Shown piece after piece: positions 10,095 through 31,535 of a DNA stretch of 32,000 nucleotides (positions within the stretch are counted from its first letter, which is position 1; each line of letters begins with the position of its first letter). Source of the stretch: Candidatus Saccharimonadota bacterium (lineage in GTDB: Bacteria; Patescibacteriota; Saccharimonadia; Saccharimonadales; Saccharimonadaceae). A model generated the notes under the pieces. That model saw only the letters and a program-made list of their open reading frames with translations, was not told the origin of the DNA and searched no databases. The position numbers were made by a program, and so were the translations under genes. Location of the stretch: assembly GCA_001897305.1 (NCBI GenBank), contig MKSO01000001.1, forward strand, positions 210,001-242,000, in the 5' to 3' direction.

Positions 10095-10577
10095 ATGAGT
10101 GAGATACATACACTTAGAAACAGTGTAAGCCTTGGGGAAGGGGCTGAATTTCGTAATGGTGAAACATGCGAGGGGGTAGCGTATGCACTCCTGACCTCAG
10201 AGGGTGAAGTTGATCCTACTCGTGACTTTGCTCGTATTCAAGTAACCCGTCGGTATCCGCTGGATGGGTTGCTCTACGCGCAAAATAATGGTTCTCAGGA
10301 ACGAGTTGAAGTTACTAGTGGTGAAGGCTATTTGCTTCGAGCTAAAACTTCCGGATATATGAGTAGAATAGCGCTTCGGCCAGGTGTGGTAGTGACTATC
10401 GAGCCGGGAGAACTATTTGCTTGGTGGCAGACCGCCTGGGACGACACAAAAGAACCGCTTGGTTTTGATATGATTTGCACGCCGCCGTTTGACCCTGAGC
10501 AATATACATACATTAGCATTGATGAAGGTATTGCCGTTAACGATAATGAAAGGAAGTTGGATGAAGTTCAAAGCTAA
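10095..10577 (+). CDS. Cupin-like small beta-barrel protein (hypothetical)
   Basis: 160 aa starting at ATG 10095, with AAGGAAA 8 nt upstream. Beta-rich pattern VEVTSGEGYLL...LRPGVVVTIEPGELFAWW. Its 3' end overlaps the ileS start by 17 nt. Confidence 0.55.
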   Translation: MSEIHTLRNSVSLGEGAEFRNGETCEGVAYALLTSEGEVDPTRDFARIQVTRRYPLDGLLYAQNNGSQERVEVTSGEGYLLRAKTSGYMSRIALRPGVVVTIEPGELFAWWQTAWDDTKEPLGFDMICTPPFDPEQYTYISIDEGIAVNDNERKLDEVQS

Positions 10578-13500
10578 TAGTCGCCGCCGTGCCCTTGAAT
10601 ACGAAAAAGAGTGGGTTGCTCAGTGGAAGCAAGATAATACGTTCGAAAAGTCGGTCGAGAACCGTTCTAAAGACGACGCCTATGTGTTCTACGATGGCCC
10701 ACCGTTTATTACTGGTGTACCGCACCACGGAACACTCCTTAGCTCTATTGTGAAAGACGCCGTGCCGCGTTATTGGACTATGAAAGGCAAGCGTGTCGAA
10801 CGTGTATGGGGCTGGGACTGTCATGGCCTGCCAGCGGAAAACTTTGTTGAAAAACAATTAAATATCGTTGATCGCCGCCAAATCGTCGCCAACTCGAGCG
10901 ATGAAACACCGCTTGATAAAGACGGCCAGCCGCTACCAACTATTAGTCTTGAAACCTACATCACCAAAGCTCGTGAAAGCATGGTGGCCAACAGCGAAAG
11001 CTGGGAAGGGGTGATTGACCGTATTGGCCGTTGGGTTGACTTCAAGGGTGCCTATCGGACTATGGATAAAGACTTTATGGAGAGTGTGTGGTGGGCCTTT
11101 AAGCAGTTGTACGAAGCTGGCAAAATTTACGAAGGCAAGAAAGTGTTGATGTATGACATCAAATTTGCCACGCCTGTTTCTAAAGCCGAAGTAACAATGG
11201 ACAATGACGCCTACCAAACCGTCACCGACCCATCAGCATATGTAAAGTTTGTATTCGAGCACGACGAAGCGTTTACAAAAGTATTTGGTGACTATCCAAA
11301 AGATGTTGCGGCTCTAGGCTGGACGACAACTCCATGGACATTGCCAGGCAACACTGCCCTTGCAGTGAGCCCTACTATGACCTATTGCTTGGTCGAAGTG
11401 GGCAACGATAGTCTAGTTATTGCTAAAGATCGCCTAGAGGCAGTGTTGAAGGGTGATAAAAACGAGCCACTTGAATACCGCGTTATAAAAGAGATGAGCG
11501 GTACTGACCTTGACGGTCTCTCGTATAAACAATTATGGAATGCACCAGTGAAAGATATTGGCCCTCATGCCACTCTTGCTATCGGTTCATTCAACGATTC
11601 AAGCGCTGAAAATTTTGAGCCAGGTCAGCCATGGGCAAGCAGCTGGAAGGTATACGCTGCTGATTTCGTGAGTGCCGAAAGCGGTACGGGTATTGTCCAT
11701 ATAGCGCCAGCCTATGGTGAGGACGACTTTGAACTGGCGAAAGAAAAGCTTCTTCTTGTCGTGGACCCGATCGATGACAACGGCTATTACGCGCAGCCAC
11801 TGCGCGACTGGCTCTATAGCCTCATGCCATGGCGAGATGCGACGGCTCCTTTAGAATGTTTTGAAGCAAATAAAGATATCGCAAAGGGCCTCGAAAAGGC
11901 TGGTATCGTCTGGAAAATCGAATACATCCGCCACGAGTACCCATTCAACCCACGCTCCAAGCAGCGCATTATGTACCGCGCCATTCCATCATGGTTCTTT
12001 GACATTCAAAATTCAAAGCCATTGATGCTTGAGCAAAACGAACATATTAACTGGTTTCCGCCTCACCTCAAGCACGGCCGCTTCCAAAAAAATATCGAAC
12101 AAGCGCCCGACTGGAACCTTAGCCGTGACCGTTTCTGGGCAACGGCTATGCCGGTGTGGAAAGGTGATAACGGCAGTATAAAAGTTGTTGGAAGCTACGC
12201 CGAACTCAAAGAACTCAGTGGGGTGGAGCTCGACGATTACCACCGCCCTTGGGTTGATGACATCACCTTCGATATTGACGGTGAACACTTCACCCGTATC
12301 GATAAAGTGCTTGATGGCTGGTTCGAATCGGGCTCAATGCCATTTGCACAGCTGCACTATCCATTTGAAAACCAAGAAACCTTCGAGAAAAACTACCCAG
12401 CGGACTTTATCGTCGAATATATCGGGCAGGTGAGGGCGTGGTTTTACTACGTACATGCTGTAAATACCGCGCTGGCTGACATTGGTGCCTTTGGTGCTGA
12501 TAGCCAGAAGCCCGAAAAAGAGGCTTTCAAAAACGTTATCACCACTGGCGTGATTGCTGGTAATGACGGCCGCAAGATGAGCAAGAGCCTTGGTAACTTT
12601 ACCGACCCGAATGAGTTGATGGATAAGTTCAGCGCCGATAGTCTCCGCTTCTTACTCTTGGGTAGTCCATTACTTAGTGGTGAGGACTTTGCGCTTCAGG
12701 ATAAAGATGTTGGCGACGTTGCTCGTAAGCTGACTATGATTTGGAACATGTACGATTTCTTTACCATGTACGCCGAAGTCGACGGCTGGGAATTTAACGG
12801 CGATTTGAACGATCCATTGGAAAGTCTGACCAACCCGCTCGACATTTGGATCGTCTCGCGCTTGCACCAGTTAGTCGGCGAAGTCGAAAAACACATGGAC
12901 GGCTATAACATTCCTGATGCACTCAGCCCAGTGCTACCATTCCTCGACGATGCCAGTAACTGGTATGTGCGTCGCAGCCGCCGCCGTTTCTGGAAGAGTG
13001 AAGATGATGGTGATAAAAACGACGCCTATCGCACACTGCACTATGTACTGGTTCGCTTGGCTTATGTTTTGGCGCCGTTTACGCCGTTCTTGGCTGAGGA
13101 GCTATACCGCAAGTTAACTGGTGACGATGAATCAATTCATCTTAAAGACTGGCTTTCAGCCGGTGCCGTTAATGAGCAGGTAATGGGTGAGATGGAGACG
13201 GTACGCGAGTATGTCAACCAAGGCCTCAGCCTGCGGGCAAAGGCGGGTATAAAGGTTCGACAGCCACTGGCTAGTGTCACGGTCCCGGGTGGCGTCACCT
13301 CATTCGATCAAGCTTCTATTTTAGAAGACGAATTGAATGTGAAAGCCGTTATTGTTGCGACTGATACAGATGCTGAGATTGCTCTCGATACCACCATTAC
13401 TCCTGAACTTCATCGTGAAGGCCTCATGCGCGAAGTTATTCGCCATGTGCAAGCGGCGCGTAAGGATGCTGGGTTGAATATCGACGACAGGATCAGCCTA

Positions 13501-13668
13501 AGTCTAAATACTGAAAATGAGGAGCTTCGCAAAGCACTCGAAGAGTACAGCGCTACGATTATTGCGGAAACTCTTGCTCATGCGCTTGTTTCCGGCGAAG
13601 CATTTGCCTATACAACAACGGTACTCGTGGAAGGCGCCGAGCTTACGGTATCTTTGGAAAAGTCCTAG
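10561..13668 (+). CDS. ileS: Isoleucine--tRNA ligase, type 2 (eukaryote/actinobacterial-like)
   Basis: FYDGPPFITGVPHHGTLL (HIGH region, type-2 form), KMSKSLGN, CP1 editing domain, and no C-terminal Zn-finger domain. ATG 10561 has AGGAAG upstream, and the N-terminus (MKFKANSRRRALEYEKEW) is typical. Confidence 0.95.
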   Translation: MKFKANSRRRALEYEKEWVAQWKQDNTFEKSVENRSKDDAYVFYDGPPFITGVPHHGTLLSSIVKDAVPRYWTMKGKRVERVWGWDCHGLPAENFVEKQLNIVDRRQIVANSSDETPLDKDGQPLPTISLETYITKARESMVANSESWEGVIDRIGRWVDFKGAYRTMDKDFMESVWWAFKQLYEAGKIYEGKKVLMYDIKFATPVSKAEVTMDNDAYQTVTDPSAYVKFVFEHDEAFTKVFGDYPKDVAALGWTTTPWTLPGNTALAVSPTMTYCLVEVGNDSLVIAKDRLEAVLKGDKNEPLEYRVIKEMSGTDLDGLSYKQLWNAPVKDIGPHATLAIGSFNDSSAENFEPGQPWASSWKVYAADFVSAESGTGIVHIAPAYGEDDFELAKEKLLLVVDPIDDNGYYAQPLRDWLYSLMPWRDATAPLECFEANKDIAKGLEKAGIVWKIEYIRHEYPFNPRSKQRIMYRAIPSWFFDIQNSKPLMLEQNEHINWFPPHLKHGRFQKNIEQAPDWNLSRDRFWATAMPVWKGDNGSIKVVGSYAELKELSGVELDDYHRPWVDDITFDIDGEHFTRIDKVLDGWFESGSMPFAQLHYPFENQETFEKNYPADFIVEYIGQVRAWFYYVHAVNTALADIGAFGADSQKPEKEAFKNVITTGVIAGNDGRKMSKSLGNFTDPNELMDKFSADSLRFLLLGSPLLSGEDFALQDKDVGDVARKLTMIWNMYDFFTMYAEVDGWEFNGDLNDPLESLTNPLDIWIVSRLHQLVGEVEKHMDGYNIPDALSPVLPFLDDASNWYVRRSRRRFWKSEDDGDKNDAYRTLHYVLVRLAYVLAPFTPFLAEELYRKLTGDDESIHLKDWLSAGAVNEQVMGEMETVREYVNQGLSLRAKAGIKVRQPLASVTVPGGVTSFDQASILEDELNVKAVIVATDTDAEIALDTTITPELHREGLMREVIRHVQAARKDAGLNIDDRISLSLNTENEELRKALEEYSATIIAETLAHALVSGEAFAYTTTVLVEGAELTVSLEKS

Positions 13669-18736: not shown

Positions 18737-18770
18737 AAAAGAACCTCCCAAGTGGAGGTTCTTTTATTGA
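18737..18770. terminator. Intrinsic (bidirectional) terminator between rplU and the EEP-family gene
   Basis: 12-bp stem AAAAGAACCTCC/GGAGGTTCTTTT with loop CAAGT. An A-run lies on the 5' side and a T-run on the 3' side. Confidence 0.75.
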
Positions 18771-19750: not shown

Positions 19751-20551
19751 ATGGCCACTGTTATCGCAGTGACAAACCAAAAAGGGGGAGTAGGCAAGAC
19801 AACTACCTCTATTAATGTGGCTTATTTTTTGGCAAAAGCTGGCCGAAAAACACTGTTAATTGACTTCGATCCTCAAGGGAATGCAACGAGCGGCCTTGGT
19901 GTTGATAAAACTAGCCTTACCGGTGATATGACTGACGTTATTAAGGGCCAGCAGCAGCTTGAGCAAATTATTGTCAAAACAGAGCATAAAAACCTGTGGC
20001 TAGCCCCAACTACCTCGGTGCTTGCCAATACCGAAGTCGAGATGGCTCAAGTGGACCGCCGTTTTTCGCGGCTTCGTATGGCGGTGGACGCAGTGCAACA
20101 GGCTTACGACTATATTATTATCGACAGCCCGCCAAGCCTCAGTTTGTTGACGGTTAATGGTTTGATCGCTGCGAAATATGTACTATTGCCGGTACAAGCT
20201 GAATTTTATGCCTTAGAGGGGTTGGGGCAGCTTCTTGAAACCATGAAGCTAGTTCGCAAGGGTATGAACCCGACACTCGAACTATTGGGTGTGTTGCCGA
20301 CCATGATGGATAGCCGAACAACTCTTAGTAACCAAGTGCACGCCGAGATTAAGCGGCACTTCCCGGGTAAGGTATTTGATGTAACGATCCCTCGTAATAT
20401 TCGTTTAGCCGAGGCGCCGAGCCACGGTATCCCTATTGGCGTGTACGACAAGTTTTCTAAGGGTTCACGTGCGTATAAAGCCCTTGCTAAAGAGGTGATT
20501 GATCGAGTTGAAGCGGCTCAGCCTGCTGCGGCTGGCGAGGGTACAGTATGA
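19751..20551 (+). CDS. parA: Chromosome partitioning ATPase ParA/Soj
   Basis: Deviant Walker A NQKGGVGKTTT, IIDSPPSL, and ATGA overlap with parB. Confidence 0.95.
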   Translation: MATVIAVTNQKGGVGKTTTSINVAYFLAKAGRKTLLIDFDPQGNATSGLGVDKTSLTGDMTDVIKGQQQLEQIIVKTEHKNLWLAPTTSVLANTEVEMAQVDRRFSRLRMAVDAVQQAYDYIIIDSPPSLSLLTVNGLIAAKYVLLPVQAEFYALEGLGQLLETMKLVRKGMNPTLELLGVLPTMMDSRTTLSNQVHAEIKRHFPGKVFDVTIPRNIRLAEAPSHGIPIGVYDKFSKGSRAYKALAKEVIDRVEAAQPAAAGEGTV

Positions 20552-21447
20552 GCGCGGCAAAAAAAGGGTTAGGGCGTGGCTTTGATTCGCTTATACCAAC
20601 GGATTTAATTGACGATAGCTTCGACCCTAATAATCTGTACGACCCAATAGCCGATGAAGACAAAAAGGTGAGCCACGAGCAAACCTTGCCACTTACAAAA
20701 ATAGTTGCCAATCCCGACCAACCTCGTCGCCAATTTGACCAAACTGCCATTGAAGAGTTGGCGGCCTCTATTAAAGAGCATGGCCTTATTCAACCTATCG
20801 TCGTTACTCCAAAAGGTGAGGCATACGAGATTGTTGCCGGCGAGCGCCGGTATCGGGCCTCCACGCTGGCTGGCCTTACGGAAGTACCTGTTATTATTCG
20901 AACGCTGTCCGCTCAAAACCAACTCGAGCTTTCATTGGTTGAGAATATTCAGCGCCGTGATTTGAATGCCATTGAAACGGCCATCGCATACGCCAAGCTA
21001 CGTGATCAGTTTAACCTTACAAACGAGCAAATCGCTGCTCGTGTTCACAAATCCAGTTCTTCAATTATTAATACGATGCGCCTATTAAAGCTTCCTAAAG
21101 AAGCCATTGCTTTAGTGGCTGAGGGGAAGCTTCGCGAGGGTCAAGTACGGCCACTTATCGGGCAAGACGATACGCTCATTCTTGAAATACTCCCTAAAAT
21201 TCTGGCTGAAGAGTGGAGTGCTCGTAAGGTTGAGCAGTACGTGGTTAATTTAAAGCGAGCCACAGAAGCGAACGAACCTAAAGAAACAGTTGATGTTGCT
21301 CCGGAAACCGTGGCCGCTATTGATGCGCTTTCGAACCGCTTTAATACCAAGGTTGCTATTCGCACCAATACAAAAGGTGCAGGTAAGATTGTTATCGATT
21401 TTAAAAATCAACAAGAATTTGAACGAATTAAAGACTTGCTTAGCTAA
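20548..21447 (+). CDS. parB: Chromosome partitioning protein ParB/Spo0J
   Basis: GLGRGFDSLIP, IQPIVV, AGERRYRA and ENIQRRDLN motifs. Confidence 0.95.
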   Translation: MSAAKKGLGRGFDSLIPTDLIDDSFDPNNLYDPIADEDKKVSHEQTLPLTKIVANPDQPRRQFDQTAIEELAASIKEHGLIQPIVVTPKGEAYEIVAGERRYRASTLAGLTEVPVIIRTLSAQNQLELSLVENIQRRDLNAIETAIAYAKLRDQFNLTNEQIAARVHKSSSSIINTMRLLKLPKEAIALVAEGKLREGQVRPLIGQDDTLILEILPKILAEEWSARKVEQYVVNLKRATEANEPKETVDVAPETVAAIDALSNRFNTKVAIRTNTKGAGKIVIDFKNQQEFERIKDLLS

Positions 21448-21590
21448 GGGCAGTGGCCTGCGGCCCTACCTTTCCAAAGGACACTTTCGCGTAACCAAAA
21501 ACCTCTAAGGCGTAGAGACCCTTAGAGGTTATTGCGTGAAGCAAGTTCCGTGGAAACGGTAGGGCCGCAGGCCACTGCCCTTAGCTAAGC
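21438..21590. repeat. Long rod-like hairpin element, copy 1 (candidate structured RNA or palindromic element)
   Basis: Perfect 33-bp outer stem (21438-70/21558-90) plus 6 more bp (21471-76/21551-56). The core shares blocks of 16, 19 and 14 nt with copy 2. Inner stem AACCTCTAAGG/CCTTAGAGGTT with 9-nt loop CGTAGAGAC. Confidence 0.7.
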
Positions 21591-21594
21591 TACC

Positions 21595-22194
21595 TTAGAA
21601 CGTTCGAATCTTATTGAATGGGAAAATCCGCATAGCAACCGGCCCGACGATATCGTATTGTGGAATCGTCCCTAAGCCATTACGAGAGTCGTACGAATAA
21701 TTGCCCTGTCGGTGGTCGCCAGATACGAAAATTTCACCTTCAGGTACGACTTCGTCTACTTCGCCGCTGGTTGGACTGCCAGGCTCGCCGTGGTTGTAAT
21801 CATCCGGGTTAAACCCTTCAGGATGAGCGTCGTTATAAACGGTGTATGTACCGTTTTTCAGTACGACGCGCTCGCCAGGGTAGGCGATGACCCGTTTTAC
21901 GATATATTCATCCTCGATGCCTAAAGTATAATGCGGGTTACGAAAAACGATAACCTGACCACGAGTAGGCATGTATTTTTTGCCTTGGATATTTGCCCAT
22001 GTTACGGGTAGGCGGTTCACGATAAGGCGGTCACCGGTATAAAGGGTTGTTTCCATACTGGGCCCAACAACATTGTAGCTACGAAACACAAAAGTATTAA
22101 TAAGAACCGTACCAATAATGACACAGACAACAAAAATAACCAGGCTAAGCAGGTCCTTGAGAAACGGATGACGGGTAAAATACGAGGCTTCCAT
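21595..22194 (-). CDS. lepB: Signal peptidase I
   Basis: GPSMETTL (catalytic Ser), YIVKRVIAYPGERV (catalytic Lys), GDHRQGNYSYDSR, and an N-terminal TM anchor. Confidence 0.9.
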   Translation of the reverse strand: MEASYFTRHPFLKDLLSLVIFVVCVIIGTVLINTFVFRSYNVVGPSMETTLYTGDRLIVNRLPVTWANIQGKKYMPTRGQVIVFRNPHYTLGIEDEYIVKRVIAYPGERVVLKNGTYTVYNDAHPEGFNPDDYNHGEPGSPTSGEVDEVVPEGEIFVSGDHRQGNYSYDSRNGLGTIPQYDIVGPVAMRIFPFNKIRTF

Positions 22195-24007: not shown

Positions 24008-24808
24008 ATGGAGTTTCTCAAATTTGTTCGTAAGAAGTCATTTCTCAGCGAACTCATCTATACAATTTTGAACATCGCCTTGGCAGTGGGTCTTCTTCTG
24101 ATTGTCCGTTATACCGAGGCGGTGTGGTTTGCTATTTTGTTAGTTTTGCTGAGTAAATGGCGTATTTTTGCGGTTCGACCGCGTTACTGGTGGGCAAACT
24201 TACGTTCAAATGTCGTCGACATTATTGTGAGTGTGAGTGTTGTGTTCCACATGTACACGATAAACGCCGCTTTAATAGCTGACAGCACCAAGTTGCTGCT
24301 CTTGATAGTCATGACGCTGCTTTATATCGGTTGGCTGCTCTATATAAAACCGCGCTCTAAGCGTTCGTATATGGCACTACAAGCTGGGATTGCTATCTTC
24401 TTGGGTGTATCAGCGCTGTTTACTATTTCGTTTAACTGGCCAGTTTCTATTGTGGTAGTGGGCGCGTGGCTCATTGGATATTCGGCGACACGGCATATTT
24501 TGGGTTCTTATGATGATGAAACCCACGGTTTATTACTGGGCTTAGTATGGGGTTTGGTCGTGGCCGAGATTACTTGGGTGGCCTACCACTGGGCAATTGC
24601 GTACCCGTTGCCAATTGTAAATACTCTCATGATTCCACAAGCCTCCATTACTGTGACTCTGGTAAGCTTCTTGGCGTACAAATGTTACGACTCGTTCTAT
24701 CACCATGCTAAAATTCGTACCAACGATATATTATTACCGCTGTTGTTTACGGTAAGTATTATGATTGTACTCGTCTTAGTGTTCAACCGAGTTGGCACCG
24801 CTATTTAA
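24008..24808 (+). CDS. Hypothetical polytopic membrane protein
   Basis: About 7-8 hydrophobic helices. Extended -10 TGgTACAAT (23989-97) lies inside the LCP 3' end, 10 nt before the ATG. Confidence 0.7.
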   Translation: MEFLKFVRKKSFLSELIYTILNIALAVGLLLIVRYTEAVWFAILLVLLSKWRIFAVRPRYWWANLRSNVVDIIVSVSVVFHMYTINAALIADSTKLLLLIVMTLLYIGWLLYIKPRSKRSYMALQAGIAIFLGVSALFTISFNWPVSIVVVGAWLIGYSATRHILGSYDDETHGLLLGLVWGLVVAEITWVAYHWAIAYPLPIVNTLMIPQASITVTLVSFLAYKCYDSFYHHAKIRTNDILLPLLFTVSIMIVLVLVFNRVGTAI

Positions 24809-24812
24809 AGCG

Positions 24813-24947
24813 GTAACCAAAGAAACTCCTCGCAGTATATTCAAAGAACACTTTCGCGTAACCCCTAAAAATAAGGCGTAGAGACCCTTATTTTTAGAGG
24901 CGTGAAGCAAGTTTCGTGAATATACTGCGAGGAGTTTCTTTGGTTAC
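24813..24947. repeat. Long rod-like hairpin element, copy 2
   Basis: Perfect 30-bp outer stem (24813-42/24918-47). Same three conserved blocks as copy 1 (24848-63, 24872-90, 24900-13), in the same order and on the same strand. Inner stem CCCCTAAAAATAAGG/CCTTATTTTTAGAGG with the same loop. Confidence 0.7.
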
Positions 24948-24956
24948 TTCAAATAA

Positions 24957-25823
24957 CTAGGCCAACTTGTCAAACAATAAGCCGTAGCCGTCATTTTTTA
25001 CCAAAACAAGGCCGTACTTTGTTGCTTCTTTTATAATTGCTGGATGCTGTTCGGGGTCGGCTTCAAGGATGAGTTTGCCGCCATACGCTAATTTTTCTTT
25101 GCTTTGAATAAGGAGCTCAAATATAAGAGATAGGCCATTATTGGTAGCGAAAAGAGCTTCGGCGGGTTCGTGGTTTGTTTCGGGTGAACGCTCCCATTCG
25201 GGGTTAACGTAGGGCAGGTTAGCGATAATAACGTCAGCTATAAAGGGGTAGCTGGTAAGTAAGTCGCTTTGGAGGGTGTTTACTTCGGCGTTGAGCGTAG
25301 CTGCATTGTCTTGGGCTACGGTAAGGGCGTGACGACTTATATCAAGCAAGGTGACGTCGAGTTCGGGGTGTTCAAGCTTAGCCGTAATACCAAGTATGCC
25401 GCTGCCCGTACCGACATCGACTACTTTTAGTGCTTCGGGTAAAAGGCTGTGATTGCGAGGGAGAGCCTCATTAAGCAGTGCTATTAAGCTTTCGGATTCG
25501 GGACGAGGAATAAGCGTCGCGGTGGTGACTTTAAACATTCGCCCGTAAAATTCCTTATGGCCAATAATGTAAGCCACTGGTACGCGGTCAAGGCGAAGGT
25601 CAAGTCGGGCATTGGCAATTTCGCGGTGCCGTTCGCTTAGCGTTTCATCACCATGACCATGCAGCCAGGTGCGAGGCTTGCGGAGAGTGTGGGCAAGTAA
25701 TAACTCGGCATCAAGGCGAGCACTGGGGATGTCGGCAAAGACAAGTTGACGGGTTGCTTCGGCGAGCCAGTCGGCAATGGTGAACGTATTAGCTGGCGTT
25801 TTGGGCGGCAAGTTCGCGTTCAT
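24957..25823 (-). CDS. prmC: Release-factor glutamine N5-methyltransferase PrmC/HemK
   Basis: SAM motif [11 protein letters not shown] and substrate motif NLPY (a variant of NPPY). Overlaps and follows prfA. Confidence 0.9.
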
Positions 25824-27585: not shown

Positions 27586-27614
27586 AAAAAGCCTCTTTTA
27601 GTAAGAGGCTTTTT
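27586..27614 (-). terminator. Intrinsic terminator downstream of rpmE
   Basis: 12-bp stem AAAAAGCCTCTT/AAGAGGCTTTTT with a 5-nt loop, flanked by A and T runs. Confidence 0.75.
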
Positions 27615-27619
27615 ATAGG

Positions 27620-31498: not shown

Positions 31499-31535
31499 AA
31501 AAATAGACTCCAACCGGGGTCTATTTTTCTTTTTG
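31499..31535. terminator. Bidirectional intrinsic terminator after tsf
   Basis: 13-bp stem AAAAATAGACTCC/GGGGTCTATTTTT (one G-U pair), loop AACC, followed by a T-rich tract. It contains the stop codon of the convergent ORF. Confidence 0.75.

Follow-up and report, generated by a model that had tools for sequence, protein, structure and literature searches.

Among the hairpin repeats described so far, Rickettsia palindromic elements (RPEs) measure about 100–150 bp and occur in a small reduced genome, both between genes and in frame in housekeeping genes, to which they add a peptide (PMC10969869); no associated transposase is known for them. The Correia/NEMIS and ERIC repeats are small and non-coding, lie at gene ends in both orientations and, in the case of Correia, can invert; their long hairpins in transcripts are substrates of RNase III or RNase E (PMC10969869). 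The REP, BIME and REPIN palindromes, which go with RAYT transposases, are extragenic, lie at gene 3' ends or between convergent genes and are recognised as a hairpin of one strand in which G.T pairs are tolerated. REPs are 20–40 nt long, are tagged with GTAG or CGTC at the base of the stem, have conserved arms (PMC3733652) and reach high copy numbers. MITEs usually occur in tens to hundreds of copies, which end in conserved terminal inverted repeats and are flanked by direct target-site duplications. The subject of the present work is a 153-nt hairpin element at positions 21438–21590 of a 32,000-nt stretch of DNA (the window) from a Candidatus Saccharimonadota bacterium (assembly GCA_001897305.1, contig MKSO01000001.1, positions 210,001 to 242,000 of the forward strand), where it fills the junction between the convergent genes parB and lepB. 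On balance, the element is probably one copy of a selfish hairpin family of Saccharibacteria, mobile or formerly mobile, in which the conserved core acts in cis and the arms are template-switched.

The family resembles RPEs in being a dispersed hairpin of 116–153 nt, present at at least 15 kinds of gene junctions with few copies per genome, and in one case of in-frame insertion (in ileS of locus L079). RPEs, however, are conserved over their full length and many of them lie in open reading frames (ORFs), whereas here only the centre is conserved, the arms are locus-specific and one in-gene copy was found. A consistently open reading frame of the RPE kind was rejected, because the best frame was open in only 17 of the 41 copies. 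The comparison was made by properties, and it is by its layout that the family is set apart from RPE-1..n. The small non-coding nature, the position at gene ends, the predicted long hairpins in transcripts and the occurrence in both orientations are shared with Correia/NEMIS and ERIC. With REP, BIME and REPIN the family shares the location, a hairpin that would be recognised on one strand and the tolerated G.T pairs; in contrast to them, it is 116–153 nt long, its GTAG lies in the apical loop, its arms vary and only 2 copies are present in 32 kb. It is not an ordinary MITE either, which had been considered as a possible outcome in the initial annotation of the window: the termini are not conserved among the copies, the outer arms being locus-specific, the repeats in the flanks have an inverted, not a direct, orientation, and the copies are few. 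The conserved centre with locus-specific arms is the reverse of the layout of RPE and hairpin MITE families.

Template switching is documented to homogenise and expand arms and to invert spacers (PMC8604942, PMC8794818, PMC13100816), and the hairpins formed in this way are similar to the present ones in their perfect arms, mirrored multi-nucleotide changes, outward growth and inverted centres. Template switching, however, is a mutational process and not an element, and it leaves a centre of about 80 nt common to dozens of loci unexplained. The flip/flop terminal hairpins of parvoviruses and poxviruses offer an analogy, with an imperfect asymmetric centre with extrahelical bases, perfect arms and two inverted orientations. 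In contrast to the family, they are telomeres of linear replicons with dedicated resolving enzymes; the element studied here is internal to a bacterial chromosome with no sign of such a replicon. An integron attC site did not fit by inspection: the conserved blocks are central, and GCGTAAC and GTTYCGT are not complementary and deviate from the R''(RYYYAAC)/R'(GTTRRRY) consensus. An inverton did not fit either, as no sigma-70-like site is present inside either window copy; inversion was seen between lineages, but no heterogeneity was observed within a population.

The hairpin in the parB/lepB junction, called copy 1 below, was confirmed by reading the sequence and by a repeat finder, which returned arms at 21438–21481 and 21547–21590 with 91% complementarity. 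The left outer arm (21438–21470, + strand, 33 nt) covers the final codons and the TAA stop of parB (ORF 20548–21447, + strand). The right outer arm (21558–21590, + strand) is its perfect complement over 33 bp and ends 4 nt short of the stop codon of lepB, the convergent gene of an S26 signal peptidase (21595–22194, - strand). The first 12 nt of the left arm, GCTTAGCTAAGC, are palindromic in themselves; the flank repeat TTAGCTAA is also palindromic itself and is therefore ambiguous as a direct or an inverted duplication. The conserved core (21471–21557, + strand; 115 bits with the covariance model) begins with the paired extension TTTCCA (21471–76)/TGGAAA (21551–56), next to which C21557 is bulged. 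Helix P2 consists of GGA/TCC (21479–81/21547–49) and ACTT/AAGT (21483–86/21543–46) with C21482 bulged. It is followed by the two pairs of P3 (G21489-C21542 and C21490-G21541), by an asymmetric internal loop, GUA (21491–93)/GAA (21538–40), and by the pairs A21494-U21537, C21495-G21536 and C21496-G21534 with C21535 bulged. P4 (21497–21510/21520–21533) contains a conserved A21499/A21531 mismatch and leads to the apex GGCGUAGAGACC at 21509–21520. The whole forms a single rod capped by the 9-nt apical sequence CGTAGAGAC. The RNA folding energy was -114.6 kcal/mol for the + strand (z = -15.5 against dinucleotide shuffles) and -110.5 kcal/mol for the - strand. The perfect stem with its extension, its start in the last codons of parB and the continuous rod had all been proposed in the initial annotation and were borne out.

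The element had been taken at first for one of a two-copy family matching no known RNA. Within the window this count is correct, as no third copy was detected with the covariance model (R1, filters off); beyond the window, dozens of members were found in related genomes. About 50 further copies were collected overall, nearly all from genomes and metagenomes of Saccharibacteria (Candidatus Microsaccharimonas-like), so the window copies are not an isolated pair lacking homologues. When one genome per species was scanned with a two-block pattern, 3 true members were returned, in a Candidatus Microsaccharimonas metagenome-assembled genome (MAG), in a MAG of an uncultured Saccharibacteria bacterium and in a contig of 5 kb from a Dongiaceae-labelled MAG. 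With the loop 19-mer, 43 metagenome loci were found, which hold about 40 unique family members and at most 4 per long contig; metagenome locus L039 is identical to the second copy of the window. Additional copies with loops differing from the search pattern were recovered from the fetched loci with model R1. The window ParB is 70–73% identical to the ParB of Candidatus Microsaccharimonas and Saccharimonadota MAGs, by which the window is identified as Saccharibacteria chromosome.

Over the window, no Rfam match was obtained at the gathering threshold, and in E-value mode the two copies gave only a chance palindrome match to mir-308 (26 of 60 bits), in agreement with the earlier statement that no known RNA family fits. 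No family match was found in plasmid and phage collections, and the 26 matches of the loop 15-mer in a scan of viral contigs included none with the flanking blocks. In the literature on Saccharibacteria repeats or non-coding RNAs, no description of the hairpin element was found. The family is undescribed and, as far as sampled, restricted to Saccharibacteria. The Dongiaceae-labelled contig (L028, DATMTU010000133.1, 5.3 kb) carries a typical member, and the proteins encoded on either side of it (ORFs of 363 and 507 aa) group with the proteins of the same junction in L033, L050, L051 and L061; to judge from these sequences, it is probably a mis-binned Saccharibacteria fragment.

Several side observations concern the members themselves. 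A divergent subfamily (…CGACATC-TGCAGCCCGAG…GGCGCGAAGCCGTC…) differs in that its internal loop is shorter and a U.G occupies the P3 position. Copies of this subfamily or with variant apical loops are present at L035, L045, L047, L063, L066 and L069 (loop-centred), and further at L046:4861-4972, L069:1662-1770 and L051:13909-14019. Typical and divergent members share samples and sometimes the same contig. The contigs of L043, L048, L052, L074 and L075 end in or right at an element, as does the one with the second L036 copy (L036:6544-6616); those of L074 and L075, relatives with 97% ParB identity, end 19 nt into the left arm. Such contig ends suggest that the palindromes break short-read assemblies.

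That the element is inserted DNA follows from orthologous junctions without it. Three loci (L077, L078, L079) have the same parA-parB-lepB-lytR-ORF266-prmC-prfA order and no element. In L077 and L079, the stop codons of both the parB/lepB and the ORF266/prmC pairs overlap by 4 nt, TTAA or CTAG (L077:10888-10891, L077:14045-14048, L079:10897-10900, L079:14133-14136), which leaves zero intergenic space and no terminator; the corresponding gaps in L078 are 11 and 37 nt. Other arrangements were also found: L080 and L082 carry an element at the parB junction and none at the prmC junction, and L081 carries one at each. In the neighbour-joining tree of ParB, the filled and flipped L057 nests inside the empty clade. 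A diverged member (31 bits) is located in frame within ileS of L079 (L079:1173-1284, contig Ga0206103_100025, - strand), where it adds 36 aa (AAAPSSDETASRRETIGELAPSVSRAADVSPDEVQTA) between ...GELVDP and NPLDQWII. This insert is absent from the 4 orthologous IleRS proteins of L077, L080, L081 and the window (10489–13668), and its arms are not copied from the ileS flanks. Together with the occurrence in both orientations and the exchange of cores described below, the empty sites and the ileS copy support the small palindromic mobile element that the initial annotation had offered as one of three explanations. The targeting of terminator loops, which was part of the same proposal, was ruled out, since the empty sites hold no pre-existing palindrome.

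Two other candidates were tried and dropped at this point. An origin of the arms from the empty-site spacer was unconvincing in the comparison of L057 with L078, and the arms of the in-gene copy are not flank copies; a second in-gene insertion, in L063, was rejected because the site is actually upstream of rpsT. The 45-nt spacer of the empty ORF266/prmC junction of L080 (L080:14793-14837) contains GCCATACCTTTTGAAAC, which resembles the inner-arm motif CCATACC of the family plus TTTTCA/TGAAAAC. It may be a deletion remnant or a chance similarity.

Of the gene contexts of the elements, 11 were convergent and 4 divergent; among the tandem ones, the core was antisense in 10 and sense in 6. At least one gene 3' end adjoins the element in 27 of these 31. 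Such a distribution, the convergent position of both window copies and the ability of a long hairpin to stall RNA polymerase from either side could be explained by an oversized bidirectional terminator, the conserved centre being an accident of common descent. This explanation is very improbable. A short G+C-rich stem with a U tract is lacking: no T run follows copy 1 or copy 2 on either strand, and neither site is listed by the terminator scan. The same genome has canonical bidirectional intrinsic terminators at 18737–18767, 27586–27616 and 31499–31528 with 12–13-bp stems, A runs upstream and T runs downstream, just as they had been described initially. Furthermore, four elements separate divergent genes and precede outward-facing -10 boxes, the member in the essential ileS must be read through, and the invariant asymmetric core and the strand-specific wobble bias reported below are left unexplained.

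Both orientations of the core were found at one and the same junction when loci were grouped by clustering of the flanking proteins: 7 distinct loci one way and 2 flipped at parB/lepB, 3 versus 4 at the gltX junction and 2 versus 3 at the helicase junction. The flipped core at the parB junction of L043 is, over its available part, the same as that at the prmC junction of L064 from the same sample. With the sample serving as a proxy for the genome, the core identity was 0.74 between same-sample paralogues, 0.78 between different-sample orthologues and 0.67 between unrelated pairs. An asymmetric centre of about 80 nt that is shared by dozens of unrelated loci requires copying between loci, by mobility or by gene conversion, and the preservation of its bulges against homogenisation requires selection.

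The outer arms behave differently from the core: they are alike only between orthologous loci, and beyond these only the inner CTACC-TTTYCA motif is common. The window and L076, whose ParB is 90% identical, share GGCAGTGGCC and differ by two indels, each of which is mirrored on both arms; the L076 arms are again perfect, and the two cores differ by three compensatory double changes. In L074 and L075 (ParB 97% identical) the left arm already differs at several positions. Outside the perfect arms, decayed inverted copies of the neighbouring gene end including its stop codon were found, by which each convergent gene keeps a stop. Between divergent genes, what is mirrored is an extended -10 box that faces outward, TGcTATAAT. 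Mirrored outward extended -10-like boxes (TGCTATAA/T) are located about 45–50 nt either side of the core in L054, L040, L062 and L070; judged by position, one of them plausibly serves the downstream gene, and the second, which looks like its inverted duplicate, could drive antisense transcription.

Replication template switching at the hairpin would keep the arms perfectly complementary, would mirror indels from one arm onto the other and would occasionally invert the centre. It would also extend the palindrome outward by inverted copying of the neighbouring flank, and stop codons, gene ends or -10 boxes would thereby appear mirrored on the far side. The core would be conserved as the cis-acting part, recognised as the folded + strand in the form of RNA or single-stranded DNA, and a host or element-encoded activity would copy the folded core between loci. 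Selection would preserve the bulges, internal loops and RGAG tetraloop of the core against the homogenising process. In transcripts, the rod would be double-stranded RNA of at least 30 bp, which should act as an RNase III substrate or as a roadblock between convergent genes; an insertion at the 3' end of a gene may for this reason be tolerated or be of slight benefit.

The structure of the core was determined from an alignment of 41 cores (A2). The consensus is one rod with a variable outer stem P1 followed by TTTYCA/TGRAAA, then P2 with GRA/TYC and ACTN/NAGT and a bulged C. P3 has 2 bp, G-C and C-G, in which a change of G to A is accompanied by C to T. Past P3 lie the asymmetric GUA/GAA internal loop and the A-U, C-G and C-G pairs with a bulged C, followed by the variable P4 of about 14 bp with a mismatch at a fixed position and by the apex GGCG-YRGAGR-CC. 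Double-sided compensatory changes were detected by RNAalifold in 29 of the 40 pairs, and mutual information selected the same pairs. In the refined structure, 88.3% of the cells were paired compared with 68.8% in shuffles, and the covariation score was 0.513 compared with 0.177, a value of 0.513 being reached by none of the 500 shuffles; slid registers all scored far lower. In copies found without a loop-sequence requirement, the apical stem showed U-A to C-G covariation beside the (A/G)GAG tetraloop. Every helix of the hairpin family covaries. The covariation check suggested in the initial annotation thus gave a positive result. The GUA/GAA internal loop resembles what we take to be a G-bulge (sarcin-ricin or loop-E-like) motif, as a candidate reading; a K-turn does not fit by inspection.

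The strand that folds was examined by a wobble test, in which the left arm was aligned to the reverse complement of the right arm with strand-neutral scoring. In the part of the outer stem nearest the core (25 bp), the + strand had 41 G.T pairs versus 10 A.C (binomial p = 1.5e-5), and by locus, 18 favoured + strand G.T versus 2 with the opposite preference. The bias was present in all gene contexts, also where the element is antisense to both flanking genes (12 versus 4), and was absent from the distal, decayed part of the palindrome (43 versus 37), which argues against a general strand-specific mutation bias. On this sequence evidence, it is the + strand of the core that has to fold, as RNA or as single-stranded DNA.

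These results are also what a functional structured RNA would display, either a cis element of a 3' untranslated region or a small RNA, whose outer stem would be an RNase III stalk that releases a core of about 80–110 nt as in the processing of rRNA precursors, and whose internal loops and RGAG tetraloop would bind protein or RNA. The strong covariation in all helices, the conserved asymmetric bulges and loops, and the preference for G.U wobbles on one strand in the structured part only are in agreement with such an RNA, as are the long retention of the parB junction across ParB of about 70% identity and the several similar cores per genome, known from multi-copy small RNA families. We nevertheless consider this explanation rather unlikely. 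The core is oriented independently of its neighbours, with 10 tandem contexts antisense to both genes and 4 divergent ones, and no sigma-70-like promoter site was found by a promoter scan inside or just before either window copy. Syntenic relatives manage without the element, one member is inside the coding sequence of ileS, the perfect 31–33-bp Watson-Crick stems with mirrored indels indicate a process at the DNA level, and there is no Rfam relative. From the first explanation given in the initial annotation, an undescribed non-coding RNA or an element processed by RNase III, the single-stranded folding of the + strand was retained on the strength of the covariation and the G.U bias, whereas the gene-independent orientation and the lack of a promoter speak against the remainder.

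It is likewise conceivable, at a fairly low probability, that the core is a new functional single-stranded module, which could be an RNA released by RNase III or the cis hairpin of a new mobile DNA. Such mobile DNA may spread without terminal repeats and duplicate its target inverted rather than direct, and the invariant G-bulge-like GUA/GAA loop and the RGAG tetraloop may be selected on one strand regardless of genes and replication direction.

The proximity to parB raised a further explanation, namely a DNA site, extruded as a cruciform or folded as a single-strand hairpin, that is bound by a host nucleoid, segregation or replication-associated protein. The palindrome at the DNA level and the one conserved position directly after parB are consistent with it, and a hairpin of single-stranded DNA could likewise account for the wobble bias towards one strand. 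Most copies, however, adjoin unrelated housekeeping genes (gltX, lysS, greA, der, rpoD, miaA, ftsA, fmt; names read from the flanking translations), and relatives with the same parAB locus are without the element. Core orientation showed no association with local GC skew (18 versus 17 loci), by which a replication-polar single-stranded DNA site was ruled out. A parS-like resemblance, GTTTCGTGAAAC, was rejected because it falls in positions that covary freely. A protein-bound DNA site is accordingly regarded as quite improbable, and the protein-binding cruciform proposed at first received no specific support.

Several observations weigh against a selfish, mobile or formerly mobile family. The copy number is low, 0–2 per 20 kb, and there are neither conserved termini nor direct target-site duplications. 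No transposase was seen in the annotated loci L077–L082, nor was a recombinase, a RAYT or an autonomous partner found, and no search aimed at these was made. No pair of non-orthologous copies with common arms was found, and no recent transposition was caught; the signal of concerted evolution is modest. The parB junction is filled in most of the sampled lineages, mostly in one orientation, which would also be expected if something useful had long been inherited vertically. Because changes that look compensatory can themselves arise by template switching, covariation alone is no proof of selection for structure. Conserved bulges and a wobble bias towards one strand are the signs expected of a functional RNA.

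The second copy of the window (copy 2) spans 24813–24947 and has a perfect 31-bp stem with a sequence unrelated to the arms of copy 1; its folding energy was -78.2 kcal/mol (z = -14.5). The left outer arm (24813–24843, + strand, 31 nt) begins 5 nt past the stop of an unannotated membrane-protein ORF in the ORF266 position (24008–24808, + strand). The right outer arm (24917–24947, + strand) is its perfect complement and ends 9 nt short of the stop codon of prmC, the convergent gene at 24957–25823 (- strand). Between them lies the conserved core (24844–24916, + strand; 105 bits with the covariance model), in the same orientation as in copy 1. The left decayed outer extension (24792–24812, + strand) comprises the end of ORF 24008–24808 with its TAA, and the right one, TTCAAATAACTAGGCCAA (24948–24965, + strand), repeats the left flank in inverted and diverged form and includes the stop codon of prmC. 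The cores of about 80 nt are nearly identical in the two copies, and their P4 stems differ and are each still paired. The three blocks said earlier to be identical in both copies are exactly so and occur in the window only in these two; in copy 2 they are ACACTTTCGCGTAACC (24848–63), TAAGGCGTAGAGACCCTTA (24872–90) and GCGTGAAGCAAGTT (24900–13). The + strand of the window is G-rich throughout, and the cores of both copies are located on this G-rich strand. A weak TAnnTT motif at the inner arm ends was noticed by inspection; it is mirrored on both sides and thus uninformative.

The genomes of Saccharibacteria and other members of the candidate phyla radiation are tiny, and to our knowledge almost nothing is known about their non-coding or selfish DNA. 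As the family shows, a hairpin element of conserved structure is present in such genomes; it can insert precisely where two convergent stop codons overlap, and even within an essential gene, and it could be mis-annotated as a terminator or a small RNA. It would also be a clean natural example of template switching that keeps 30-bp palindromes perfect, extends them and flips their centre. Should the core turn out to be an RNA that has a function of its own, or to be the signal for a new mechanism of transposition, it would represent a new class.

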